Source: an uncultured bacterium (GTDB taxonomy: Bacteria; Planctomycetota; UBA1135). From it: a DNA stretch of 12,753 nt. Shown here in pieces: positions 1-10,899 of this stretch. Below the pieces are notes generated by a model, which ran no database searches, was not told the origin of the DNA, and was given only the letters and a program-made list of their open reading frames with translations. How positions within the stretch are numbered: the stretch's first letter is position 1; each line of letters opens with the position of its first letter. Position numbers and translations under genes: made by a program. Location of the stretch: the NCBI GenBank assembly GCA_937919925.1, contig CALFOT010000102.1:1-12753 (forward strand), read 5' to 3'.

Positions 1-71
1 CTCAACGGTTGGCGTTGCAACTCCTACCTGCTGTGCTGGCCCCATGGTTAGCGCGACGATCCCTGTGCGCT

Positions 72-92
72 TCCTTGCCGAAAGCGCAAGGA
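72..92 (+). promoter_or_regulatory. 7-bp inverted repeat (TCCTTGC-cgaaagc-GCAAGGA) in the 5' noncoding leader region; possible end-of-upstream-transcript hairpin or protein binding site
   Basis: Arms 72-78 and 86-92 are exact reverse complements with a 7-nt loop. No T-run follows, so it is not a canonical intrinsic terminator. Confidence 0.25.
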
Positions 93-105
93 GCCTAATC
101 CGGGA

Positions 106-207: not shown

Positions 208-223
208 TGGCACGCGCCTTGCA
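208..223 (+). promoter_or_regulatory. sigma-54 (RpoN) dependent -24/-12 promoter, perfect consensus TGGCACG-N4-TTGCA
   Basis: TGGCAC at 208-213, spacer gcgcc, TTGCA at 219-223. The GG and GC dinucleotides are exactly 10 nt apart. The predicted TSS near 233-235 is about 20 nt upstream of the ATG at 254. An NtrC-family activator is encoded in the same gene array. Confidence 0.7.
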
Positions 224-253
224 TAACATCCAGAAACCCATGGAACTCTGAAC

Positions 254-805
254 ATGAAACTACTCACTCTTACTGTCTTAATACTCACAGCATCTTGCGC
301 TGCTCCGGAGGTTGAATCCGGTCCTGACACGATTCAACTTCGCTCAGCGATTTCAACCGCTCTTCTTGGTGGTGATGTCACCACGGCCGAAATGGCGGCC
401 CGCGAAGCAGAAAGCACTTTGCCCGGGGATGTTGTGGTTGCATTGCTCGCTGCTGAAGCGCATGCGGCTTCAGGCAACCCAAATGCAGCAATCGCCAGTC
501 TCGACCGCGCCATCATCGTGGCAACTACCGATGAGTTACTCCGACACGCTTATCGCAATCGCGGTTCACTCTATATGCAAGCTGGTCGCCCGACAGAAGC
601 ATTCGATGACCTTCAGCAGGCCTATGAACTCGGTGACACAAGCATGGCGTTACTCCGCGACCTTGGTGCCGCAGCCTATGGCTCCGGCAACTTCCAGGCT
701 GCTCGTGCGGCTTGGGAACAACTTCCCGACAACGATCGCAAGAGTGTCGACACCGTAGTCGGCCCCGGTTTTTTCCTGGAGAAGTCCGTCTCCATCAATC
801 GCTGA
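254..805 (+). CDS. secreted protein or possible lipoprotein with TPR-like repeats (183 aa)
   Basis: The N-terminus MKLLTLTVLILTASC is a classic signal peptide with a Cys at the end of the h-region; the lipobox is imperfect (T at -3). The body is Ala/Leu-rich with repeated helical pairs typical of TPR (e.g. AIASLDRAI...AYRNRGSLYMQAGRPTEAFDDLQQAYELGD). Confidence 0.8.
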   Translation: MKLLTLTVLILTASCAAPEVESGPDTIQLRSAISTALLGGDVTTAEMAAREAESTLPGDVVVALLAAEAHAASGNPNAAIASLDRAIIVATTDELLRHAYRNRGSLYMQAGRPTEAFDDLQQAYELGDTSMALLRDLGAAAYGSGNFQAARAAWEQLPDNDRKSVDTVVGPGFFLEKSVSINR

Positions 806-826
806 TCACCAACTGAGGACCCAACC

Positions 827-1864
827 ATGACCCTTTTTCTTAATCTAATCACCCTGGCTTTACTCGGGCTTCCACAACAAGAAGGCACTCAAGGTGAGAC
901 TGTGCAATCACCGTCAAGCTCGCAACAAGCCGGTGCCAGCCTCGTACTGCCCGACTTCGATCCTGCCGTTTCCTTTAATCAACTTGAACAAGGAATGCGT
1001 CGCTTGGATCCCGTCACAAAAACACTGCGTGATGCCAACGAGACCATTCATCCTCTGGTCGAGGAGTTCAAGATTGACCCCTCTCTGGAAAACCAGGCGA
1101 AACTGGAAACGGCCTTAGCGAAGTTCACCGCCGATCTTTCACGCAAGATACGCAGTGCTCTTGCTGCCCATGAAAAGGTAACCTTCGCATTTCAAGATAT
1201 CGTGCACGGTGTCAAAGGAATGGGGGTATCCCTTGAACTGTACTCTGCTGATCTGAAGCAGCAGGCCGCCACCGAAGAAGAAGCGCTCGCCGAGAGCGTG
1301 AAGCAGCTAGAGGAGGTAGCCGAGGCTTGGGATGTAGCCGAGGATGCTGAAGAAAAGGAGTCCTTGATGGAACAGTTCAAGGAGCTCTATCGGCTGCAAC
1401 AACGGCAAGTCTATCGCGCACGATATTTAGGTGCATTGGCCAATCACTACAAGGATCTTGCCGGCGGCGTGGTGCAACTGGATGGTTCCCTACGCATGGT
1501 GCATGGTCGCGTTGAGGATGCTTATGATCGGCTCGAAGATGCAGGTGAGATGCTTGCATTTGCCGCAGGCTTCCGTCGCGATGCCACCGGAATCGTAGCC
1601 CACTACCAGTCGTTCTTCGGCCAAGGGAACGATTCGGTGCGCAATGTCCTGGAGCGGATTCAAAGTATCGAAGGACGTCTCGAGATCTTCGAAGGCGCGT
1701 CCAGTGTGCTGGACGAAGCTGGTCCATTGATGCCCATGTTGCATGACATGGATCAACTCACCCAAGGCTTGAAAAACAGTGCCGAAACCGCCGACCAAAA
1801 TGAAGTGGTATCAGCCGATAGCTATTGGGAATCAAAAATGCAAAAAACCCTGCAAGGGGAATAG
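827..1864 (+). CDS. secreted acidic alpha-helical/coiled-coil protein of unknown function (345 aa)
   Basis: GAGGA RBS at 815-819, 7 nt before the ATG. The N-terminal hydrophobic signal peptide is MTLFLNLITLALLGLPQQE. The body is Glu/Ala/Leu/Gln-rich with predicted long helices. No recognisable catalytic motif. Confidence 0.8.
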   Translation: MTLFLNLITLALLGLPQQEGTQGETVQSPSSSQQAGASLVLPDFDPAVSFNQLEQGMRRLDPVTKTLRDANETIHPLVEEFKIDPSLENQAKLETALAKFTADLSRKIRSALAAHEKVTFAFQDIVHGVKGMGVSLELYSADLKQQAATEEEALAESVKQLEEVAEAWDVAEDAEEKESLMEQFKELYRLQQRQVYRARYLGALANHYKDLAGGVVQLDGSLRMVHGRVEDAYDRLEDAGEMLAFAAGFRRDATGIVAHYQSFFGQGNDSVRNVLERIQSIEGRLEIFEGASSVLDEAGPLMPMLHDMDQLTQGLKNSAETADQNEVVSADSYWESKMQKTLQGE

Positions 1865-1900
1865 AGAAATAACCCTTTACTAAACAACCATCGAGGAATC

Positions 1901-2464
1901 ATGATGAACACAATCCTACTGTTTTTCCTGGCCGCAATGCCGCAACAGGAATTCGCCTCTGCACAAAGCGCATATGAGCAAGTGCAGCCCACCCCTTCCG
2001 AAACGGTTCAAGTCCTGGTTGAGCGTAACGAGTTCACTCTCGCTCGTGTGACTGAGTTGGAAAGGCGCATAGCTGCCGACGAGACAAAATTGATTGAACT
2101 GGATCGCTTAGAGGTTGAGCGCTATTTGGCACTCAAAGCTCACTTCACGGATAAGGAGCTTGAGAAACGCCTTCAGGCCGAAGCGCGTACTTTCGAACTT
2201 CGCCGCAAGGGAGTCAAGCAGTCCATCGAACTGACCAACATCAACTTAGAAGATGCTCGCAATCGACTTGCTAAGTTGGACGTGGATCTTCGTCTCGCAC
2301 GCATCGAGCAAGGTCTTGTTCAAAACACAGAGCCTGCACCTGGAACGCCAGTGGCGGATCGGCTTGAAGCCCGTTCACGCACCGTTCTTCTGGATCGCGC
2401 AATGGCCGTCGGCAAGTTTGATTTCGTGTCGATTCCGCACTCTTGGGTCACATTGGAATTCTAA
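1901..2464 (+). CDS. secreted coiled-coil protein of unknown function (187 aa)
   Basis: GAGGA at 1893-1897 just upstream of a tandem ATG ATG. The signal peptide is MMNTILLFFLAAMPQQEFASA. Charged heptad-like stretches follow (ELERRIAADETKLIELDRLEVERYL..., LAKLDVDLRLARIEQ). Confidence 0.8.
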   Translation: MMNTILLFFLAAMPQQEFASAQSAYEQVQPTPSETVQVLVERNEFTLARVTELERRIAADETKLIELDRLEVERYLALKAHFTDKELEKRLQAEARTFELRRKGVKQSIELTNINLEDARNRLAKLDVDLRLARIEQGLVQNTEPAPGTPVADRLEARSRTVLLDRAMAVGKFDFVSIPHSWVTLEF

Positions 2465-2476
2465 GGAGTGCGAATC

Positions 2477-3268
2477 ATGCGTTGTGCGGAACCCATTGCG
2501 TGGATTGTCTCAATAGGAGTTCATGCCTGGCTATTGATGCCAGTGCTTGCAGAAACAAGTGGGCAGTCAACATCGGCAGAAGATGTTGCAACTTCGATAG
2601 TAGCAGTGGCGGTTGTCGCCGAACGCCCCCCTTCAAAGGTCGAGGTTGAACCTGAACAGGAGCCGGAGTATTTGGAAGAGGAGATGGCATCACCGGTGGA
2701 GTTGCGCCCCGCTGACGAGCTCGCTGTGTTTGAGGAGGATGGCGATTCTTGGGAGGAGTCACTGGCAGAACCAGAAGGCAGCGGAGAATCGTCACCAGCA
2801 TCAGCAATGGTGTTTTCCGATGATGCCGTGCGAGCGCTGAACTTGGTGCTGGATCTTTCGGATCATGATCTATTCCTTTCTGCTGCTCAGGACTTAGAGA
2901 TACGTTTCCTCATCTATCCGGCTTCTAAGTCTCCCAAGTGGGTACTTGAGTTACATGGCCCTGGTCTTGAATCGGTGGCACAAATAACCCCTGATTCTTT
3001 GGGTCAGCTTTCCCGTCGCGCGCACGATTTGACTCCCGATCGGTTTTTCCGCACAATTCGCAATCGTGCAACACAATCGGCTGGATTTCCCTCAACCGGG
3101 GCTCGTTTGGTTGCTGCAGTACCCGCTGGAACCGACAAGATGTTCCTTGCTGCGGAAAGGAGTTACCTCCAACAAGCTGGGCCTGCAGCAGCTCAAATGA
3201 GAACTCTGCATGGGTGCCTTGTCCGCGACGGCAGCACTTGGCAGTTAGAGATAACGGGGGGGGTGTAG
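2477..3268 (+). CDS. membrane-anchored protein with TonB-like N-terminal SxxxH transmembrane anchor and acidic Glu/Pro-rich spacer (264 aa from ATG 2477; the longest ORF begins at GTG 2468)
   Basis: AGGAG at 2464-2468 is 8 nt before ATG 2477. The GTG at 2468 overlaps the RBS and is unlikely to be the start. The TM segment IAWIVSIGVHAWLLMPVL carries the S-x3-H spacing seen in the TonB anchor. It is followed by the acidic stretch VEVEPEQEPEYLEEEMASPVELRP. I cannot recognise a TonB C-terminal domain. Confidence 0.75.
   Translation: MRCAEPIAWIVSIGVHAWLLMPVLAETSGQSTSAEDVATSIVAVAVVAERPPSKVEVEPEQEPEYLEEEMASPVELRPADELAVFEEDGDSWEESLAEPEGSGESSPASAMVFSDDAVRALNLVLDLSDHDLFLSAAQDLEIRFLIYPASKSPKWVLELHGPGLESVAQITPDSLGQLSRRAHDLTPDRFFRTIRNRATQSAGFPSTGARLVAAVPAGTDKMFLAAERSYLQQAGPAAAQMRTLHGCLVRDGSTWQLEITGGV
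3256..3263 (+). repeat. G8 homopolymeric tract immediately before the stop codon of CDS 2477..3268
   Basis: A direct read gives ...acg ggg ggg gtg tag. The tract lies at the junction of two reading frames that are both open here (the 2477 frame and the 3214/3331 frame). Confidence 0.9.
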
Positions 3269-3330
3269 AATCTGAACCTCTTGGCCTCTTTCCAGCTACC
3301 CACCCCCAATTCCTGTTCTTCGGAGAACCC

Positions 3331-4845
3331 TTGGCTCATCTCTTAGTCGTTGACGATGCTTATCATAAAGTCCGCTCTGGTCTTGATGCGGTATTGGATG
3401 AACACCGGGTCTCTGGTGCCACCGACGGCGCCGCGGCTCTGCAGCTGATTGAATCCGAACCTTCCATCGACGTTGTGCTGCTTGATGTGCGCATGCCTCC
3501 TCTGGTCGGCAAGATTGAAGAAGAAGAAGGGTTGGCGGTATTCGAGAAAATAAAGGAGATTCGACCAGAGTTGCCGGTGATTTTCCTTTCGGCTTACGAC
3601 GATCTCCGCTTAGTGAATCGCGCTTTGACAGCAGGTGGTTTTTGGTATTTGAAGAAGCCACCAGACTTAGAGGAGACTCGAAGTTTAGTGCGCCGGGCAG
3701 TCGAGCTGAGCCTTGCACAGAGGGAATCTACCGAGAGGCGCGCTGCAGCGGAAGCTCGTCTCCAAGTGGTATCGCGTACGGGGATTCGCAGACCTAATAG
3801 TCGGCTGGTTGGTGATTCATTCGTTCTTCGTCAACTCAACTTAGAGTTGGCGATGTTCGCGGCAACGGATGTTCCTGTACTTTTGCTTGGTGAGACAGGT
3901 TGTGGCAAAGAGCTGTGTGCCCATGAACTTCACGATTTGTCTGCTCGTCGAAGTGGCCCTTTTATTGCTGTCAATTGTCACGAGCTTAATCATAGTGAAA
4001 CTGCTCAGTCGAGGTTGTTCGGCCATAGCAAAGGAGCCTTTACCGGTGCTGTTGAAGACACGCAAGGAGCCTTTGAATCGGCTCATGGTGGCACATTGTT
4101 CCTCGATGAAATCGGCGATTTAGATCTTGATATGCAAGGCCGGTTATTGCGCGTACTTCAAGAGCGTGAGGTCGTGCGCATCGGTGCTGGCGAACGCCCT
4201 CGCGCCGTAGATGTGCGCATGGTCTTTGCCACCAATCGGAATCCCGAGGTCCTTGTAAGTGAAGGTATCGTTCGAGAGGATTTCTACTATCGAATTGCAG
4301 TCGGGGTAGTGAGAGCACCGGCGCTTCGTGAGCATCTCGATGATTTGGAGTTGCTGGTGCCGGCTTTGTTGCAAGCTTCTCTTGTCAGGGATCGGATTCC
4401 TGAATGTACCGTAAGTACTGCTGTTTATCCTTTGCTTTGCAACCACAATTGGCCAGGCAACGTGCGTGAGTTAGAGAATGTTTTGAAAAGGGCTGCCGTG
4501 CGAGCAGCCTCTCAAGGTGTCATCTCACCAGAGCACATTGATTTGCCAAGAGATACCGTTGCCTCAGCCACTTCGGCAACAATCTCAGGCGATTTGTTCA
4601 CAGAGATCTTGGGAAATGGGGGGTACTCTGACGGCTTGAAGCGATTCCGAGACGAATACGGAGAAATCGCAATGCGTGAGGTCCTGACCAGAGCGGTACG
4701 TCTCTCGGGTAGCGTGGTGCGCGCCGGTGAACTGCTTGGCTTTGTTCACCCGGACAGCCGAGCGAAGGATTATGAGAACCTTCGAGCTTGGATGAAAACT
4801 CTTGGCTTGCGCAAAAGTGATATCGCAGAAGGAGGTCTCGCGTGA
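3331..4845 (+). CDS. NtrC-family sigma-54-dependent transcriptional activator / response regulator (receiver + AAA+ sigma-54 interaction domain + Fis-type HTH); likely TTG start at 3331, while the ORF-track frame opens at 3214
   Basis: Receiver motifs are present: LLVVDD, phospho-Asp context VVLLDVRMP, and the conserved Lys in WYLKKP. The AAA+ domain has Walker A GETGCGKE, the sigma-54 contact loop GAFTGA, Walker B LFLDEIGDL, and R-finger/sensor regions VRMVFATNRN and EDFYYRI. The C-terminal HTH is ...RAGELLG.... GGAGA at 3320-3324 lies 6 nt before TTG 3331, and the receiver fold begins at MAHLLVVDD. The stop overlaps the next start (GTGA at 4842-4845). Confidence 0.9.
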   Translation: MAHLLVVDDAYHKVRSGLDAVLDEHRVSGATDGAAALQLIESEPSIDVVLLDVRMPPLVGKIEEEEGLAVFEKIKEIRPELPVIFLSAYDDLRLVNRALTAGGFWYLKKPPDLEETRSLVRRAVELSLAQRESTERRAAAEARLQVVSRTGIRRPNSRLVGDSFVLRQLNLELAMFAATDVPVLLLGETGCGKELCAHELHDLSARRSGPFIAVNCHELNHSETAQSRLFGHSKGAFTGAVEDTQGAFESAHGGTLFLDEIGDLDLDMQGRLLRVLQEREVVRIGAGERPRAVDVRMVFATNRNPEVLVSEGIVREDFYYRIAVGVVRAPALREHLDDLELLVPALLQASLVRDRIPECTVSTAVYPLLCNHNWPGNVRELENVLKRAAVRAASQGVISPEHIDLPRDTVASATSATISGDLFTEILGNGGYSDGLKRFRDEYGEIAMREVLTRAVRLSGSVVRAGELLGFVHPDSRAKDYENLRAWMKTLGLRKSDIAEGGLA

Positions 4846-6467
4846 GTGAATTGATTTGCCCGGATTGTGAACAGCAGCTTGATGGCATCATAGATTTCTG
4901 TACGAACTGCGGCGCCAATCTTGAAGAAGTCGACGCCGGCAGCGACGTTTTCTTTGCGGACTCAGATTTTGAGACCACTGCTGAGGAGCCGCCTTCGCTG
5001 GAATCCTCCACTGTCATTTCGATGGAACCGATTGTTGCTCCATCGCCGCCGCCTGTTATCGCGCCACGAGTTGAAATTCCTTCTTCCAACGATGACCCCC
5101 CAAACCTGGTCATGGATACGGGGGTAAGCGCTCGCGTTGGTGAAAATGGTGTCCTCTGGTTCGGATTGGCGAACAATCGAACCTCCCGGATTAATGCTCG
5201 TCTTGCCGTCAATATGGATAAAGGGGCTCGCGAGATGTTTCACCATTTCAATGGGGAGCGCGAGCTGCGCGTTGGGCCATCCGGCGAAGGTACTGCTTCA
5301 GTTTCGTTCCGCGCTCAAGTAGCAGGTGAGTTTCCGCTTTCGGTCCGCCTCTTCGTCGAAGACTACCGTGCAAGCGGGAAGGTTTCATTCTACCAGGTTG
5401 CCGATCACTGTAAGGTTTTCTTCGGTATCTCTAGTCAACAAAGCGGTGGTTCCATCACCGTGCACAACGAAGTTTGTATCGATCGAAACTATGGCGGCGA
5501 TATCAGCATTCGCCCTGAAGCTCTGCGCAGCATTCAGGAGAAAATGGGAGTTAACGAAGGCGCAAACAGAGCTGCTCCCCAGGAGTTGCCGCTGGAGGCG
5601 CCAGAATCTGTGCAGGGTTGGATACAGCACTCTAGAAACGCCATTCGAGGTTCTCATCTCCGCTTGGATGTCATGCGGCTCGATAAGTTGTATCGGCGTT
5701 TCCATATCCTGGTTTGTAACGAACTCTGGTTTGGTCGTAATGATGTCACGCAACTTCCCGGAGGTCGTAGAGGATTCAACACCCTTGCTTTGCGTTGGCT
5801 TCCCTGTCGGTCAAAAGAGCAAGACCCTAAGAGTTTTTCCTTTAATCAGTCCATCAGCCGCCATCATGCCGGCATGTTGCATGCCGATGAAGCTGGCACA
5901 GCTATTAACTGTTGCTCCAGCTCACTTCAGGTAGATACCCATCAACTTGGCAAAGGAGATTCGCAGCAGTTTCATGCTGGATCCGCCTATCGACTCAAGC
6001 TCGGACATCCGGCCCTTGAGTTTGATATCACTCCTTTGACGACTTCGGGAGAGGATCCTTCGCAATGGTTGCGGGATTGGAACCAATTTACAGGTATGAG
6101 TGGAGCGATTGTTCATCCAACGCGTCACGATGCGATTCGAATCGACCGTGTCAATAACTTGGAGCAAGTCAGTTACGTCATGCTCCTGCAGTCTGCATCC
6201 ATTGGCGGTGGGCGCCGAGATGCTTGTTTTGTCAAGGGACTGCCCCCCGCAGTCTTGAGACTCGCGCGTTGTGGATCCAACCTATTCGTCTTGACTGGCC
6301 CAGATTTTGTAAATCAAGGTACTGCTGCTGCCGACGAAAGGTATTGGCGACCAATATGCGCAGGCGATCGGTACGACTCGGGCGAGTGGAGCTACCGGTT
6401 TTCGACATCTTCGGTTTCCGATACCAAAAGAGAAGATGATTTGGTGAGTGCCTTGGAGGACGAATGA
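4842..6467 (+). CDS. N-terminal zinc-ribbon (DZR-type, CxxC-N11-CxxC) protein with a central FHA-like domain (541 aa), GTG start
   Basis: GGAGG at 4831-4835 is 6 nt before GTG 4842. The N-terminus is MSELICPDCEQQLDGIIDFCTNCGANL, followed by a Pro-rich linker. The FHA signature elements are WFGRN...SISRHHAGM...EAGTAINC...LGKGDSQ...YRLKLG. The loop between the first and second FHA elements is longer than usual, so the call is moderate. Confidence 0.6.
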   Translation: MSELICPDCEQQLDGIIDFCTNCGANLEEVDAGSDVFFADSDFETTAEEPPSLESSTVISMEPIVAPSPPPVIAPRVEIPSSNDDPPNLVMDTGVSARVGENGVLWFGLANNRTSRINARLAVNMDKGAREMFHHFNGERELRVGPSGEGTASVSFRAQVAGEFPLSVRLFVEDYRASGKVSFYQVADHCKVFFGISSQQSGGSITVHNEVCIDRNYGGDISIRPEALRSIQEKMGVNEGANRAAPQELPLEAPESVQGWIQHSRNAIRGSHLRLDVMRLDKLYRRFHILVCNELWFGRNDVTQLPGGRRGFNTLALRWLPCRSKEQDPKSFSFNQSISRHHAGMLHADEAGTAINCCSSSLQVDTHQLGKGDSQQFHAGSAYRLKLGHPALEFDITPLTTSGEDPSQWLRDWNQFTGMSGAIVHPTRHDAIRIDRVNNLEQVSYVMLLQSASIGGGRRDACFVKGLPPAVLRLARCGSNLFVLTGPDFVNQGTAAADERYWRPICAGDRYDSGEWSYRFSTSSVSDTKREDDLVSALEDE

Positions 6468-7489
6468 GCCGTTTCGAAGAACGTATTCGCGCTGCCGAGG
6501 AAAGGGCGAAGGGTAGAGTCCAAGCGGCAGCAAACTGTCATTCCGCCTCGCCTGCGGAGCGTGGCACATGGGCTGAGTATCGGGAGCGCATGGACAGCCT
6601 ACGCAAGGAAATCGACAATCGGTTTCAATCGACCGGAAGTTATCAGAGCAAGGAATGCGGCCCTTTAGATCGCATTTTCCTCGAGCGTGCACTTTCCGCC
6701 CTGAAGCATGGCCTCGTTGAATCCTGTTTCTACAACTTAAGGATTCTCGCCCAAAAGGTGGCCCTCGATAGAGGGAGCCAAGACTTGAGCGCCCTGACCA
6801 CTGCTGGTGAGCGAGTACCGACGGTACGCAAAGAGCTTGGCTTGTTCCTTCAGGGCCGGGTTCCATGTGGAATCCTGGTGGCTGATCTTCTCCCAGATTT
6901 GGCGAGTGTTTTTTTGAAAACACTCCCGTTGCTTGAAGGTGCCGTAGTGGGAGGCTTGGCGATGGCGAAGGAGATTCCAGCTTTGGTAGATGCCGTCCTT
7001 TCGGGCATCGCAAGAGAAGCTGATAGTCTGCGCTCTCAGCGATTATCCTTATTCGCTCTTGTGCGTCGAGCATTGGAGATTGAAGGGCCAAGACTTCAAG
7101 AAGCGGACATGGATGTAAGCGTTGAAAACGAAGTGGAAGACGATCGCATTCATGCTGATGAACCACGTCTTCTCGATACTATCGTTGAGTTGTTAAGAAA
7201 CGCCGCAGTTCATCGAGAAGGAAGTGGTCGCGGGAAGGTGGTCATTAACTTGAGGCCGCGCGAGAACTATATTCACCTTGTGGTCTCAAGTCGACCTGCT
7301 CTTCCACCCCTCATCCCTCTTAATCGACTTTTCGAGACCGGAGTCTCGCGGAGGGAAGGTGGGGGCGATGGGCTTGCAACCGTCCAGCGCACCTTGACTT
7401 CCCATGGTGGCAGGGCGGAGCTTCAGTTTTCTTGTGGCAGTGGCACCTTCGACGTTTGCCTAGCCTTGCCTACCCGGCTTCCGGTTTAG
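6464..7489 (+). CDS. atypical histidine-kinase-like ATPase (GHKL/HATPase_c at C-terminus; no clear H-box; degenerate G1 box) (341 aa)
   Basis: ATGA overlap with the upstream stop (6464-6467). The N-box is LLDTIVELLRNAAVH, the F-box is LFETGVSRR, and the G2 box is GGGDGLATVQRTLTSHGG, with the typical HK ending GSGTFDVCLALP. The expected G1 position reads VVSSRPALPP instead of DxGxG. The N-terminal 230 aa are helical; H26 is the only weak H-box candidate. Confidence 0.65.
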   Translation: MSRFEERIRAAEERAKGRVQAAANCHSASPAERGTWAEYRERMDSLRKEIDNRFQSTGSYQSKECGPLDRIFLERALSALKHGLVESCFYNLRILAQKVALDRGSQDLSALTTAGERVPTVRKELGLFLQGRVPCGILVADLLPDLASVFLKTLPLLEGAVVGGLAMAKEIPALVDAVLSGIAREADSLRSQRLSLFALVRRALEIEGPRLQEADMDVSVENEVEDDRIHADEPRLLDTIVELLRNAAVHREGSGRGKVVINLRPRENYIHLVVSSRPALPPLIPLNRLFETGVSRREGGGDGLATVQRTLTSHGGRAELQFSCGSGTFDVCLALPTRLPV

Positions 7490-7498: not shown

Positions 7499-7538
7499 CC
7501 CAGGAATCGGGGATAAATGAATCACATTTGGTGAGTTC

Positions 7539-7585
7539 CCCTGCATCTCAGGGAGTCTGGATTCACAAAAAACACCGATGCAGGG
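7539..7585 (+). promoter_or_regulatory. 9-bp perfect inverted repeat CCCTGCATC-N29-GATGCAGGG directly upstream of the second sigma-54-like promoter; candidate regulator binding site
   Basis: Arms 7539-7547 and 7577-7585 are exact reverse complements separated by 29 nt. The centre lies about 40 bp upstream of the -24 element at 7598. Confidence 0.3.
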
Positions 7586-7597
7586 CGTAGATGGCAG

Positions 7598-7613
7598 TGG
7601 CATGATGGTTGCA
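7598..7613 (+). promoter_or_regulatory. sigma-54-type -24/-12 promoter with one mismatch: TGGCATG-N4-TTGCA
   Basis: TGGCAT at 7598-7603, spacer gatgg, TTGCA at 7609-7613. The GG/GC spacing is correct. It sits in the only sizeable intergenic gap (119 bp) of the array, immediately upstream of the lipoprotein gene. Confidence 0.5.
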
Positions 7614-7635: not shown

Positions 7636-8748
7636 ATGACTACCATGCGAATCATCATCATTACTACATTGAGTCTCGTTGGCTGTGTGAGCCCCCCTCT
7701 TGGCTCTACTTTCGAGGATGCTCAGTCTCTCGCTAATCGCGGGGAGTTCGGAGCTGCAGTAGCTGTAGCAGAACCGCTGCTGCTCAGAACAACTTCAGTT
7801 TCTACACTTGAGGAGGTCTGTGGGTGGGCGCTAAAGGCCGGGCGGATGGAGCAGGCATATGATTTCTCCAATCGGCTCATCGGCTTCGAATCCCAATCAT
7901 GGGTTGGCCATCGCACTCGTGGGCTGGCTCTTGTTTCTTTAAAGCGGCTCAGTGCTGCGATTCCAGATCTTGAGTTTGTCCATCGTAATGGCCCGCCAGA
8001 TTCTGAAGTTCAACGCGCCCTTGGTCTTGCGATGGAATTTGTTGGAAGAGATCCAGGCAAGGCAAACTCCCTGCTAGTTTTATCTGGCTTCGATGATGAT
8101 GAGGTGACCGCCGCTCTCAGCCGCCTCGAAGTTCTGCTTCATCCCGCGCCACTGCCTTCCGTCACAGTTACCGACGAACCTGCCGCATGGACTCAAGTCG
8201 CCGCACTTGATTTGGCCACGACATGTTTTGTCTTAGATGAGCAGCTGAGGCTTTCGGGCTTCCTTCTCAAAAACCAGGAAGCCGCTGCTCTTACCGGCGA
8301 CGAATATGCATCTGGCTTACGCGCTGCCGACCGTCGTCGAGATGCTGCTGCCCTTGTCGACCTTCCAGACGAAGATGGCACAGCCGCCGTTCTCACTCAT
8401 TTCGTCGAAGTCGGTCTACTGAGTGTCGACAACAACAAAATCAACCCCGACGAGATTCTCCAGCGTGGTCAGTTTGCACAACTTGTAACGGACCTTCTGC
8501 GATTACTCGAGGAGGATAAAGGATTTGCGGTTGGAGGTGACGGTGAATCTCCTTTCTCGGACATGAGCGTTCGGCATCCCCGCTTTGCGGTTGCGAGCGC
8601 AGCTTGTGCGCTTGGTGTTCTGCACGCAGACGCATCGCGACGTTTTCGGCCTTCGGACCCGCTTTCTGGCGCGGAACTTTCCGACGCTCTCGACCTACTT
8701 CGCGAAGTTCTTCTTCGTTCTCCGCTTTACCAAGAGATGATTCGATGA
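7636..8748 (+). CDS. lipoprotein with TPR-like helical repeats and two C-terminal SLH (S-layer homology)-like repeats (371 aa from ATG 7636; the track ORF opens at TTG 7609, which overlaps the promoter)
   Basis: The lipoprotein signal is MTTMRIIIITTLSLVGC (lipobox LVGC). The SLH-like motifs are LPDEDGTAAVLTHFVEVGLLSVDNNKINPDEILQRGQFAQLV and FSDMSVRHPRFAVASAACALGVLHADASRRFRPSDPLSGAELSDAL. Both follow the F-x-D...A...G(I/V/L)...F-x-P...(I/L)-(T/S)-R/G-A-E pattern. Confidence 0.7.
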   Translation: MTTMRIIIITTLSLVGCVSPPLGSTFEDAQSLANRGEFGAAVAVAEPLLLRTTSVSTLEEVCGWALKAGRMEQAYDFSNRLIGFESQSWVGHRTRGLALVSLKRLSAAIPDLEFVHRNGPPDSEVQRALGLAMEFVGRDPGKANSLLVLSGFDDDEVTAALSRLEVLLHPAPLPSVTVTDEPAAWTQVAALDLATTCFVLDEQLRLSGFLLKNQEAAALTGDEYASGLRAADRRRDAAALVDLPDEDGTAAVLTHFVEVGLLSVDNNKINPDEILQRGQFAQLVTDLLRLLEEDKGFAVGGDGESPFSDMSVRHPRFAVASAACALGVLHADASRRFRPSDPLSGAELSDALDLLREVLLRSPLYQEMIR

Positions 8749-9803
8749 TAGCCCTCCTTTCGATTGCCTGTTTTGCTTTGGCTCAGCCACTTGTGGCTTT
8801 ACCGGCACAAGAACCTAGTCATGATGTCTCGGATCAATCTGCAAGGTCGACTTCACTCGAGGTCGCAGGAGAAGCTGTTGGGCTTACTCGTGAAGCTGCA
8901 ATATCCGCTGCGAAACAAGATGCCATGTCGCGCGCGATTCAGGAACTTTATCGCGAAGAAGGTCTTGCCGCACCCCTGCAGGCTGTTGCCGATCGCTTAG
9001 CAGCGCTGGATCGTTCACTCGGTGGTTTTCTTGCCGCTGAGACTCTTGATTCTGAATGGAAGGAAGAGACTAGTCTCGCGAAGGTTCGCTTGAAAGTCGA
9101 AGCCGACATCGTCGCTTTTCGTCGCTGTGCTTCACGTGCTCTGCGTGTGCAAGTAATTTGCACAGGCCCCCTTTCAGACCAGATTGCATCCAGTTTCAAG
9201 GAGAGGCTTGCCGCCGAAGGTTTTGAGGTGGTATTGGGTGGATCGCGGGAAGGCGCCGATGCGATTGTCATCGCCAAGCCGGTGCTCGATAAATTGCCAG
9301 GCGGCGAGGCAGGTTTCTCTTCTTGGCGCGGCGCCCTCACGATTGAAGTTCATTCGCTCTCGATGCGTGACGACGCCACAGTTGTGCTTGCTGATCGTCG
9401 ATTCGAACCAAAGGGAGCCATGGTCGGCAGCAATGCCCGTGAAGTGGCACGGAAGACCATCCTTCCGCTTTGTTCAGAGGCGGCAGATCTTGCCGCACAG
9501 CGTATTTTGAACGCAGCTTCGGCAAGTGCCCGTTGGACAATCTCCGTCGAAGGCGCAACCGAACGCTACCTCGTCGAAGATTTGCTCGACGCCATTACCC
9601 AACGAGGTGTTTCTGCCGGCGTGGTGGGGGTTAGTTCTCTCAGCTGGGATCCTCCGAATGCAACCTTCCGGTTGGTCGTCGATCGTCGTGGGGCGAATCG
9701 CCTTGGTGGTATCATGGGCACTCTGGATTTGTCTGAAGGTAGGCGGGTGCGGGTGTTACGCGAAGCAAACTCAACCATGATCGTTAGAATTGAATCCTCC
9801 TGA
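8745..9803 (+). CDS. secreted protein with N-terminal LPP20-like domain (353 aa from ATG 8745; the track ORF is artificially extended upstream to 8604)
   Basis: ATGA overlap with the stop of the lipoprotein gene (8745-8748). The signal peptide is MIALLSIACFALAQPLVALPAQEP. EVAGEAVGLTREAAISAAKQDAMSRAIQELY resembles the LPP20/FlgP-type lipoprotein fold signature. The C-terminal half (GADAIVIAKPV...LTIEVHSLSMRDDATVV) weakly resembles the CsgG/FlgO-type motif. Confidence 0.55.
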   Translation: MIALLSIACFALAQPLVALPAQEPSHDVSDQSARSTSLEVAGEAVGLTREAAISAAKQDAMSRAIQELYREEGLAAPLQAVADRLAALDRSLGGFLAAETLDSEWKEETSLAKVRLKVEADIVAFRRCASRALRVQVICTGPLSDQIASSFKERLAAEGFEVVLGGSREGADAIVIAKPVLDKLPGGEAGFSSWRGALTIEVHSLSMRDDATVVLADRRFEPKGAMVGSNAREVARKTILPLCSEAADLAAQRILNAASASARWTISVEGATERYLVEDLLDAITQRGVSAGVVGVSSLSWDPPNATFRLVVDRRGANRLGGIMGTLDLSEGRRVRVLREANSTMIVRIESS

Positions 9804-9810
9804 TTTTGTC

Positions 9811-10899
9811 ATGTATTTCCTTCTCACTCTTCCTCTCGTTCTGTTTCAGAACGGCCCCTCTCAGCTCGATGAGATTCTTCCCAGTCGAGCCGAAAGCCTT
9901 GCTATTGAGCTCGCCGCTGACTTGAATGAAAGCGGTATTCTCGGAGAGCATGGCATCCAAGCGTTCGCCTTCCCAGGTGCAATCGGTGATGTACAAGGCG
10001 CTTTTCATGACCGCCTTTTAAATCACATGTTGCGCGACTTTGGCTTGGAGTTGATTGCCGAGCGCGAAGAAAGGGTTCAAATACTGCAAAACTATTTCCG
10101 TAAAGATGGTTTTGAACAAGGCATCTATGATGGTGGCAGCCTAAAGAGTCTTGGTGGACAATTTTTGGACAACGAGGCGATTCTCGGCGCCAGAATTTAT
10201 TCGGTGGACGGAGCGGATGGGTTAGAGATATATGCTCAAGCTGAACTTTGGGATGCACGCCGCGCCGTCATGGTGTGGAATAAAACGATATCGCTCTTGG
10301 TGAAGGAACCGGTTTCTCCGCCTGTTGTCGTAGAGAAAGAGGAATCCTTATTCGTGCCAGTCCTAATCATTCTTGCTGGAATCATCGCCGCGATCGCCAT
10401 ATTCAGTCTAATGAATCGCAGGGAACAGATTGCGAAGGCTCAGCGACGTGGAGGGGCATCTATCGAGAGGCAATCGCAGAAAAAGCGCGACCGTGATTTG
10501 CGAGGTGAGGCTGCTCGACGAGCGCATGCAGGAGCAGATCGCTTGACCGCAGCAGCAAGCCAAGTCGATGCCGCAGCTCGTTCTATCTTCGAAAATTCAG
10601 GTGAAGACTTACGGTCGCTCGCAAGGAATTTCGAGAAGGCTGCCGCAGGTACATTTCGCCGTCCCGTAGAGGAGCGAGGTGATTCAGAGATTGCTGCTGC
10701 ACGCGCCCTAGCTGACCATGACGAACGTACACTCGGCCTAGTAGAGGAAATGGGTCGTACTGTTGATACCCTAGTTGCCGGGGCTTCTTCTGATTCCGCT
10801 GAGGCGGTAGCTAAGTTGGCTGCCAAGCTAGAAGACCTCATCCAGAGTGCTAATCACCGTCTCGGAGAACGCACTGACCTGATTCGTTCCAGTAGTTAA
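9811..10899 (+). CDS. bitopic membrane protein: signal peptide, periplasmic CsgG/FlgO/TolB_N-like motif domain, single TM helix, cytoplasmic charged coiled-coil tail (363 aa from ATG 9811; alternative TTG 9790)
   Basis: The N-terminus is MYFLLTLPLVLFQNG. The periplasmic region FAFPGAIGD...GLELIAEREERVQILQNYFRKDGFEQGIYDGGSLKSLGGQFLDNEAILGARIYSVDGADGLEIYAQAELWDARRAVMVW follows the motif ER..l..il.E...q.sG.yd....k.lG...gadaii.G.i......g..i.a.l.d..tg.vvw. The TM helix is LFVPVLIILAGIIAAIAIFSL, followed by an Arg/Ala/Glu-rich tail. Confidence 0.55.
   Translation: MYFLLTLPLVLFQNGPSQLDEILPSRAESLAIELAADLNESGILGEHGIQAFAFPGAIGDVQGAFHDRLLNHMLRDFGLELIAEREERVQILQNYFRKDGFEQGIYDGGSLKSLGGQFLDNEAILGARIYSVDGADGLEIYAQAELWDARRAVMVWNKTISLLVKEPVSPPVVVEKEESLFVPVLIILAGIIAAIAIFSLMNRREQIAKAQRRGGASIERQSQKKRDRDLRGEAARRAHAGADRLTAAASQVDAAARSIFENSGEDLRSLARNFEKAAAGTFRRPVEERGDSEIAAARALADHDERTLGLVEEMGRTVDTLVAGASSDSAEAVAKLAAKLEDLIQSANHRLGERTDLIRSSS

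Follow-up and report, generated by a model that had tools for sequence, protein, structure and literature searches.

A sigma-54-type envelope operon of an uncultured planctomycete that probably encodes its own activator

Promoters of the sigma-54 type are silent without an activator. In glnALG, the transcript of the structural gene runs on into the genes for the kinase and for the activator, an enhancer-binding protein (EBP), which thereby amplifies its own synthesis. To our knowledge there is almost no experimental work on sigma-54 control in the Planctomycetota, the phylum to which the locus described here belongs. It lies on contig CALFOT010000102.1 of assembly GCA_937919925.1, from an uncultured member of UBA1135, and the window, by which we mean the whole stretch of DNA analysed, is 12,753 nucleotides (nt) long. 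In this window a sigma-54-type promoter, which we call P1, precedes seven genes, the fifth of which encodes an EBP. EBP genes transcribed from sigma-54 promoters that are activated by their own products have been described for glnALG/NtrC and zraSR/ZraR (PMC4987338, Table 1), and a survey predicts sigma-54 promoters before many genes of the NtrC family, Planctomycetota included (PMC12316311). The features on which the comparison turns are listed below, in coordinates of the window.

106-131, unstranded: candidate upstream activating sequence (UAS) of P1, an inverted repeat ATAGTGGGAGGG/CCATCCCACTAT with the core TGGGAG-N6-ATCCCA at 110-127
208-223, plus strand: P1, predicted sigma-54 -24/-12 element TGGCACgcgccTTGCA (16-mer TGGCACGCGCCTTGCA), score 23/23
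254-805, plus strand: g1, TPR protein with a signal or lipoprotein-like N-terminus MKLLTLTVLILTASC (Pfam TPR_2, TPR_19 and others)
827-1864, plus strand: g2, 345-residue protein with a hydrophobic N-terminus and no known domain
1901-2464, plus strand: g3, 187-residue protein with a hydrophobic N-terminus and no known domain, with orthologues in the divergent relatives L012, L015 and L017
2468-3268, plus strand: g4, membrane protein of TonB-like layout that crosses the membrane once (residues 9-28)
3331-4845, plus strand: g5, response-regulator EBP with a TTG start, consisting of a receiver, an AAA+ domain with GAFTGA and a C-terminal domain predicted to be helical
4842-6467, plus strand: g6, protein with an N-terminal zinc ribbon, a middle region rich in beta structure and, in its C-terminal half, a tandem FHA-like part
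6464-7489, plus strand: g7, probably soluble histidine-kinase-like protein with HATPase_c

P1 satisfies all the conserved positions of the -24/-12 consensus and is the only match without a mismatch to TGGCAC-N5-TTGCW in the window. The chance expectation was obtained from 200 dinucleotide-preserving shuffles of the window, and amounts to 0.03 matches per window, with 5 of the 200 shuffles containing one. P1 ends 30 nt before the ATG of g1 at 254, and if C222 is taken as -12, transcription is predicted to start near 234. Every GG-N10-GC site on both strands was also scored against a weighted consensus with a maximum of 23. The top three sites in the 15-kb region have scores of 23, 22 and 22, and are respectively P1, a site before a second operon further downstream (P2) and a site before exbB just outside the window (P0). 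All three lie between genes, in the coding orientation, and leave 20-31 nt to the first gene of their cluster. When up to two mismatches were allowed, 6 sites were found in the window against 7.5 expected. One such sequence, the one-mismatch site TGGCCCttttaTTGCT within the EBP gene (3954-3969), is probably due to chance.

Many aquatic metagenomes contain contigs of 13-15 kb that are identical or nearly identical to the window. Four ungapped comparisons were checked (L001-L004), with 5-25 substitutions relative to the window in 10.8 kb; for L005 the register is lost after a 1-nt indel. Such strain-level contigs (L001-L006) are too close to the window to be informative on promoter constraint. 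The closest distinct relative is L009, at 87% identity; a 21-kb contig from JGI 3300072015, at 66% identity, has the same gene order as the window; and the only named relative is NIOZ-UU38, a Planctomycetota metagenome-assembled genome (MAG). The promoter comparisons were made with three divergent relatives, L012, L015 and L017, whose contigs total 27.9 kb and whose g2 proteins are 54-64% identical to that of the window. In each of these, a sigma-54 element precedes the g1 orthologue: TGGCATggcgcTTGCC in L012 (497-512), ending 30 nt from the start codon; CGGCACggcgcTTGCC in L015 (1796-1811), ending 29 nt from it; and TGGCCCggcatTTGCC in L017 (8585-8600), ending 33 nt from it. At this divergence the intergenic DNA is otherwise unalignable, and the fact that the element keeps its place is therefore strong evidence for a functional sigma-54 promoter. 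Judged from the sequence and its conservation, P1 is very probably real, and the original prediction of a perfect sigma-54 consensus at 208-223 is well borne out.

The arrangement in L012 is instructive. This relative has no exbB or exbD, and the upstream kinase gene is followed by its conserved terminator, then by about 300 nt, and then by a pair of palindromes and P1. This implies that P1 is a stand-alone promoter there, and that the palindromes are not terminators. In the window, no terminator was found between the upstream exbB unit and P1 (95-210, no significant RNA structure), and read-through from P0 may add to the expression of g1-g7.

The second piece of evidence is the palindrome upstream of P1. 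Its arms extend to 9 bp and its centre is 91 bp upstream of the GG of the -24 element. The upstream regions of the sigma-54 sites, when aligned on the -24 element, have in common the motif yGGGAG-N6-CTCCCr. (A MAFFT alignment of the P1 and P2 upstream regions was meaningless, and the motif emerged only after anchoring on -24.) The pattern TGGGA-N8-TCCCA, derived from P1, was found only once more in 13.2 kb, at a point 61 bp upstream of the GG of P0. A looser pattern, which also catches P2, occurs in these three places only, against 0.08 expected from shuffles. A possible second palindrome of P0, TGGGT-N6-ACCCA, which is 39 bp from the GG, has its arms 2 bp nearer to each other than in the canonical site and was not counted.

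The 27.9 kb of the divergent relatives contain seven 16-mers in which 9 or all 10 of the 10 core positions agree with the motif. Six of the seven sit 39-93 bp upstream of sigma-54 sites of the cluster (binomial P = 8e-11), and the seventh is 61 bp upstream of a weaker sigma-54-like site. The palindromes are usually paired, 21-22 bp apart, with distances from centre to GG of 61/82 bp at P1 of L012, 71/93 bp at P1 of L015, and 39/61 bp both at P1 of L017 and at the promoter of its g8 orthologue. P0 of L015 has a single palindrome 39 bp from the GG, and P1 of the window has the one strong palindrome with the extended arms. A separation of 21-22 bp corresponds to two turns of the helix, so that both members of a pair would face the same side of the DNA, which is the geometry expected of tandem dimer sites at which an EBP oligomer nucleates. 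In addition, the half-sites are conserved and the 6-nt spacer is variable, which points to a protein-binding site and not to an RNA stem. The suggestion that a UAS palindrome lies upstream of P1 can thus be extended: the core GGGAG-N6-CTCCC is common to the sigma-54 sites of the cluster and is phased across lineages.

The seven genes after P1 are all on the plus strand, with gaps of 21, 36, 3, 62, -4 and -4 nt, and the gene callers used on public contigs find the same seven. The order g1-g2-g3-g4-EBP-g6-kinase is kept in every relative with a long enough contig, and g5, g6 and g7 invariably keep their co-linearity with g1-g4. In L017 the three modules (the exbB, g1 and g8 operons) are reordered, with each of them keeping its sigma-54 site; the retention of all three despite the reordering supports the idea that they form a functional unit. 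The claim of seven tightly packed genes without a promoter-sized gap therefore needs some qualification, in that the genes are as described but the EBP gene is preceded by 62 nt, a gap that should not be neglected.

The g5 protein has the receiver and ATPase of a response-regulator EBP. Pfam identifies Response_reg (2.4e-16), Sigma54_activat (9.2e-57) and AAA_lid_14. The receiver contains the DD pocket, the phospho-acceptor Asp in LLDVRMP, the Ser in FLSAY and the Lys in YLKKP, and these residues are invariant in the three orthologues that include the receiver region (L007 begins past it). The AAA+ domain has Walker A and B motifs as well as GAFTGA, the last of these invariant among orthologues, and matches the ATPase cores of FleQ, NtrC, ZraR and PspF in the PDB with E values from 1e-62 to 1e-49. 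The start that gives a protein of 504 residues agrees with the calls in the 66%-identity relative and in L012. All scores are below the NCBIfam equivalog cut-offs (NtrC 315.8/558.6, PrsR 287.1/502.6, ZraR 242.2/760), and by sequence g5 is an NtrC-family EBP outside all the named subfamilies tested. Its final stretch of approximately 80 residues scarcely varies among orthologues whose overall identity is 63-68%, and is the best conserved part of the protein outside the ATPase. A single-sequence AlphaFold2 prediction gives this domain four or five helices, with a predicted local distance difference test (pLDDT) value of 68. The fifth gene had been described as a complete GAFTGA-containing EBP; this is true of the receiver and the ATPase, whereas no recognisable DNA-binding domain (no HTH_8) was found.

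On this basis we propose the following model. P1 would drive g1-g7, with transcription starting near 234. The transcript would encode four envelope proteins (the TPR protein, two secreted or anchored proteins and the TonB-like anchor), then the EBP, the FHA-like protein and the kinase; we infer that transcription reads through to g5-g7. Phosphorylated EBP would assemble on the palindrome yGGGAG-N6-CTCCCr (110-127) and would open the sigma-54 closed complex by ATP hydrolysis, acting through its GAFTGA loop. The EBP gene would lie within the transcript that its product activates, so that the module would raise its own level, a case of positive autoregulation. Because sigma-54 promoters are silent without activator, the first EBP molecules would have to come from a low constitutive promoter. 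The case for autoregulation is made by the layout together with the conserved enhancer, and we assign the full model, in which g1-g7 are driven by P1 and by their own EBP, a probability of roughly 0.65. The original prediction of positive autoregulation agrees with the layout, the conserved palindrome and the linkage of the genes; that it is this EBP that binds the palindrome is something we infer. The further proposal of a feed-forward or bistable circuit is one we do not retain, as a two-component system with positive autoregulation need not behave in either way.

The original prediction was also confined to the one operon. Envelope genes are indeed found around the EBP gene, but this frame is too narrow, since a second site at 7598-7613 was missed and a third, before exbB, lies outside the window. 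The features concerned are as follows.

1-98, plus strand: 3' end of u3, a gene for a 190-residue multi-pass membrane protein, the last gene of an exbB-exbD-u3 unit that starts outside the window
824-839 of L001, just outside the window: P0, predicted sigma-54 element TGGCACtctaaTTGCA, ending 20 nt before exbB, score 22/23
7509-7526, unstranded: distal UAS-like site of P2, GGGGATaaatgaATCACA, 7/10 core positions, centre 82 bp upstream of the GG
7550-7567, unstranded: proximal UAS-like site of P2, AGGGAGtctggaTTCACA, 8/10 core positions, centre 41 bp upstream of the GG
7598-7613, plus strand: P2, sigma-54-type element TGGCATgatggTTGCA, score 22/23, before the g8-g11 operon
7645-8748, plus strand: g8, first gene of the downstream operon, a lipoprotein (LVGC lipobox) with TPR and weak similarity to S-layer homology (SLH) domains
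8745-9803, plus strand: g9, 352-residue secreted or anchored protein with no assigned function
9811-10899, plus strand: g10, 362-residue protein with a central membrane segment
10908-12533, plus strand: g11, protein with a double zinc ribbon and an SPFH/Band 7 domain (Pfam Band_7 1.3e-09, DZR 3.6e-07)

Public contigs identical to the window carry ExbB, ExbD and the 190-residue gene, which ends 155 nt before the TPR gene. A perfect palindrome, TGGGAGccgccaCTCCCA (L001 756-773), is located 61 bp upstream of the GG of P0, and the combination of element and palindrome before exbB probably places the exbB-exbD unit in the same regulon. A sigma-54 site also precedes exbB in L015 and L017. Between P2 and the start of the next operon there are 22 or 31 nt, depending on whether the ATG at 7636 or that at 7645 is used. 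Upstream of it, the block 7510-7531 (GGGATAAATGAATCACATTTGG), which spans 7510-7526 of the distal site, is identical in L009 while its flanks have diverged. Positions 7551-7567 of the proximal site are likewise identical, the first base (7550) differs, and the DNA between the two blocks has diverged. In L017 the g8 orthologue is likewise preceded by such a site, together with two palindromes. As the motif also precedes the exbB-exbD site, and weaker copies precede P2, the EBP probably regulates all three operons, and would thus co-ordinate a three-operon envelope regulon.

Several observations weigh against the model, and the first of them concern the identity of the activator. P1 might be genuine and yet be activated by another EBP encoded elsewhere in the genome, with the g5 protein acting elsewhere or needing no specific site. 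The C-terminal domain of g5 matched no helix-turn-helix by any method. Pfam HTH_8 was absent at E <= 10 from the window EBP, from three orthologues and from a construct without the apparent 9-residue insertion; phmmer against PDB sequences gave nothing relevant; Foldseek with the pLDDT-68 model gave no match; and BLASTP against Fis, for which an approximate Fis sequence was used, was negative. A word-index homologue search with the 84-residue domain returned 2 candidates only. By eye, EIAMREVLTRAVRLSGSVVRAGELLGF...ENLRAWMKTLGL in the C-terminus resembles the NtrC pattern with an insertion, which we regard as a lead only. Planctomycetes also have many EBPs, another of which could serve these promoters, and many NtrC-type regulators with predicted sigma-54 promoters have been reported in the Planctomycetota (PMC12316311). 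Against a foreign activator, the palindrome travels with the cluster through lineages at 54-64% identity and through a rearrangement, g5 is the only regulator encoded in the cluster with a plausible DNA-binding region, and both its C-terminal domain and the half-site are nearly invariant. We therefore judge activation by a different EBP to be rather unlikely. Two matters of scope belong here too. The contigs of this lineage, at 13-15 kb, are too short to show the presence of rpoN, and the palindrome pattern was refined after the sites had been seen, which leaves the test in the relatives as the independent one. At P2, furthermore, L009 has AAGCAT in place of TGGCAT at -24, with the -12 element and the UAS-like blocks intact, so that P2 is less secure than P1 and not uniformly a canonical sigma-54 promoter.

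The remaining difficulty for self-activation through P1 is the 62-nt gap before the EBP gene, which is 62-63 nt long in L012 and L015 and could hold a separate or basal promoter. If g5-g7 were expressed mainly from a constitutive promoter of their own, in or before this gap, P1 would add little EBP and the regulator would be effectively constitutive. A sigma-54 loop does require a basal source of activator, there is a weak sigma-70-like match, TTGACT-17-CACAAT, inside g4 at 3029-3057, and glnALG offers a precedent in its internal promoter glnLp. However, no terminator or significant RNA structure was found at 3240-3340 (z-score +1.4), the corresponding gap in L017 is merely 22 nt, and a basal promoter is compatible with read-through from P1, the classical cases having both. 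A regulator that is in effect constitutive seems to us unlikely.

A different doubt concerns the palindromes, which could be operators for a repressor or accessory factor, or RNA hairpins or terminators, instead of EBP enhancers. As RNA, the palindrome of the window could form a 9-bp hairpin just past the upstream stop codon. It has no U-tract, though, and a folding z-score of only -1.1, which speaks against a terminator or attenuator, and Rfam has no match to an RNA element at the locus. The conserved half-sites and variable spacer are the signature of protein binding, the palindromes occur in phased pairs (21-22 bp) at fixed distances from the GG of the -24 element, and those of L012 are far from any upstream gene. 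We consider a role other than that of enhancers very unlikely. Finally, it is extremely improbable that the -24/-12 match is accidental and that transcription of the operon depends on some other kind of promoter that went unrecognised: a perfect match does arise in 5 of 200 shuffles, but the position of the site is kept in three divergent relatives, the cluster has two further sites, and a conserved upstream palindrome goes with them.

Having set out the alternatives, we return to activation of P1 by the EBP of its own operon, and to the proteins that would be expressed under it. The g2 protein has no match in Pfam, NCBIfam or PADLOC, and is rare, with only 7 clusters among 5.8 billion proteins. 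PADLOC gave no match to an anti-phage system either. The hydrophobic N-termini of g2 and g3 (827-890 and 1901-1950) end in the same motif, ...LPQQE and ...MPQQE respectively, which may be a shared processing or sorting signal. In an alignment of g4 orthologues, W..HAW is invariant in the membrane helix, the acidic linker rich in Pro and Glu is variable, and the C-terminal domain is conserved, with no match to TonB_C or any other Pfam family. The gene for this TonB-like protein has those for ExbB and ExbD in its neighbourhood.

The g6 protein (541 residues) has zinc-ribbon matches at its N-terminus and invariant FGRND and ISR motifs in its C-terminal half. There is no direct match to Pfam FHA. 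A profile of g6 finds remote homologues at 1e-14 to 1e-20, in which the aligned region is Pfam FHA or Yop-YscD_cpl, in many cases joined in one protein to a Ser/Thr kinase domain or a double zinc ribbon. The best Foldseek match in the PDB is an FHA domain (E = 0.04), which is a hint only, because the model is poor (AlphaFold2 from a 5-sequence alignment, pLDDT 47.8). Like g2, the protein is rare: it forms 5 clusters among 5.8 billion proteins, there are 7 representatives below 1e-30 among 1.84 billion, and in genome and metagenome scans the profile found only the NIOZ-UU38 MAG. We found no description in the literature of an FHA-like protein encoded as a separate polypeptide between an EBP and a histidine kinase.

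The g7 protein scores 31.8 bits against Pfam HATPase_c (cut-off 26.4), with ELLRNAAxHR and GGDGL invariant, and is labelled a signal transduction histidine kinase in one source. Its invariant His82, in LKHGLVESCFYNL, lies in the highly conserved block PLDRxFLExALSxLKHGxVESCFYNLR. Pfam gives no HisKA match, and no sensor domain can be recognised. A hydrophobic stretch at residues 133-151 reaches the threshold for a membrane segment; as this is the only one and is short, we take the protein to be probably soluble.

In four lineages a Pkinase/FGE-sulfatase gene borders the cluster. It is the left-hand neighbour, encoding a Ser/Thr protein kinase with an FGE-sulfatase domain, in L001 (1-570), JGI 3300072015 and L015 (3-389). 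That Ser/Thr phosphorylation is connected to the His-Asp pair is a plausible idea, though a speculative one. The approximately 45 nt past the stop codon of this gene (...CTCTTTTACCCTCTTACCCTCT...) are almost invariant in the lineages compared, whose proteins are about 60% identical; the block is at 571-615 in L001, at about 30-75 in L012 and at about 390-435 in L015, and is followed by a GC-rich hairpin in L001 and L012.

It is worth adding some further observations on the contigs. By its hydrophobicity profile, the 190-residue protein has several membrane segments. Its gene, between exbD and P1 (L001 1944-2516), is present in the lineage of the window only, being absent from the 66% JGI relative, L015 and L017. 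At the end of g4 there is a run of eight G (3256-3263), and in L005 a 1-nt difference in the length of this run fuses g4 and the EBP into a single open reading frame of 789 residues, which could be an assembly error or a slippage-prone tract. L003 is nearly identical to the window except for 15 substitutions within 75 nt of g8 (8395-8469), a patch that looks like local recombination or a hypervariable stretch. The longest contig carrying the locus is 10-20 kb in 26 of the 37 collection blocks that list it, and six retrieved contigs with the locus are 13.2-15.4 kb long. Assemblies may thus break at the same flanks in many samples, which would point to repeats or strain variation on both sides.

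The regulatory logic proposed here, an EBP that amplifies its own operon, is familiar. The locus is of value for its new enhancer, its rare partner protein and its uncharacterised cargo, and it provides a clean, testable case: a defined promoter, an 18-bp enhancer motif conserved across lineages, and a compact envelope regulon. The operon joins a His-Asp phosphorelay to a predicted capacity for FHA-type recognition of phospho-threonine, and an ExbBD/TonB-like energy transducer is predicted to be placed under sigma-54 control. The unusual feature is the rare protein with a zinc ribbon and a tandem FHA-like half, encoded between the EBP and a probably soluble histidine kinase. One may go further and imagine a regulon specific to the Planctomycetota, in which a single EBP and a new enhancer govern three sigma-54 operons that build an ExbB/ExbD-powered TonB-like apparatus with an SPFH scaffold, and in which the zinc-ribbon/tandem-FHA protein couples the flanking Ser/Thr kinase to a sensorless soluble histidine kinase; we put this forward tentatively and regard it as somewhat doubtful.

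Among described systems, glnAp2-glnALG of enteric bacteria has a similar architecture, with a sigma-54 promoter before the structural gene or genes, a transcript that continues into kinase and EBP genes, and tandem palindromic enhancers upstream. The enhancer is different, being TGCACC-N5-GGTGCA there and GGGAG-N6-CTCCC here, and the structural gene there is that for glutamine synthetase, in contrast to the four envelope proteins here. In addition, the present operon has an FHA-like protein between the EBP and the kinase, its kinase has no recognisable HisKA or PAS domain, and its EBP, at 315.8 bits against the NtrC cut-off of 558.6, has a C-terminus that is not recognisable as HTH_8.

The zraP/zraSR system resembles the locus in that ZraR activates the sigma-54 promoters both of its own zraSR operon and of the gene for a periplasmic envelope-stress protein (PMC4987338; PMC12316311). 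There, the promoters are divergent and the sensor kinase is in the membrane; here, the operons are co-linear, the kinase is probably soluble and there is an FHA-like partner. The EBP scores 242 bits against a ZraR equivalog cut-off of 760. In the PspF/pspABCDE system, sigma-54 and an EBP control membrane-stress proteins, and the downstream operon described here ends with an SPFH/Band 7 protein. PspF, however, has no receiver, is held by PspA, and is not expressed from the sigma-54 promoter that it activates. A Psp system was dropped as a candidate, no PspA/IM30 domain having been detected by Pfam in the proteins of the window.

The PrsK/PrsR/PrsT set of PEP-CTERM systems likewise comprises a response-regulator EBP, a histidine kinase and a TPR lipoprotein, and provides the second-best NCBIfam match for the EBP together with weak matches for the kinase and the TPR protein. 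The scores are far below the cut-offs (287/502.6, 26/300 and 22/312 respectively), and no PEP-CTERM or exosortase genes are present. Finally, modules that combine Ser/Thr kinases with FHA domains are represented by PpkA-Fha1 of type VI secretion, and FHA-containing EBPs occur in Myxococcus. The present locus is similar to these in that the remote homologues of g6 are often fused to Pkinase and that a Pkinase/FGE-sulfatase gene flanks the cluster, and differs from them in having an FHA-like protein that is a polypeptide of its own, with its gene between those for the EBP and the histidine kinase.

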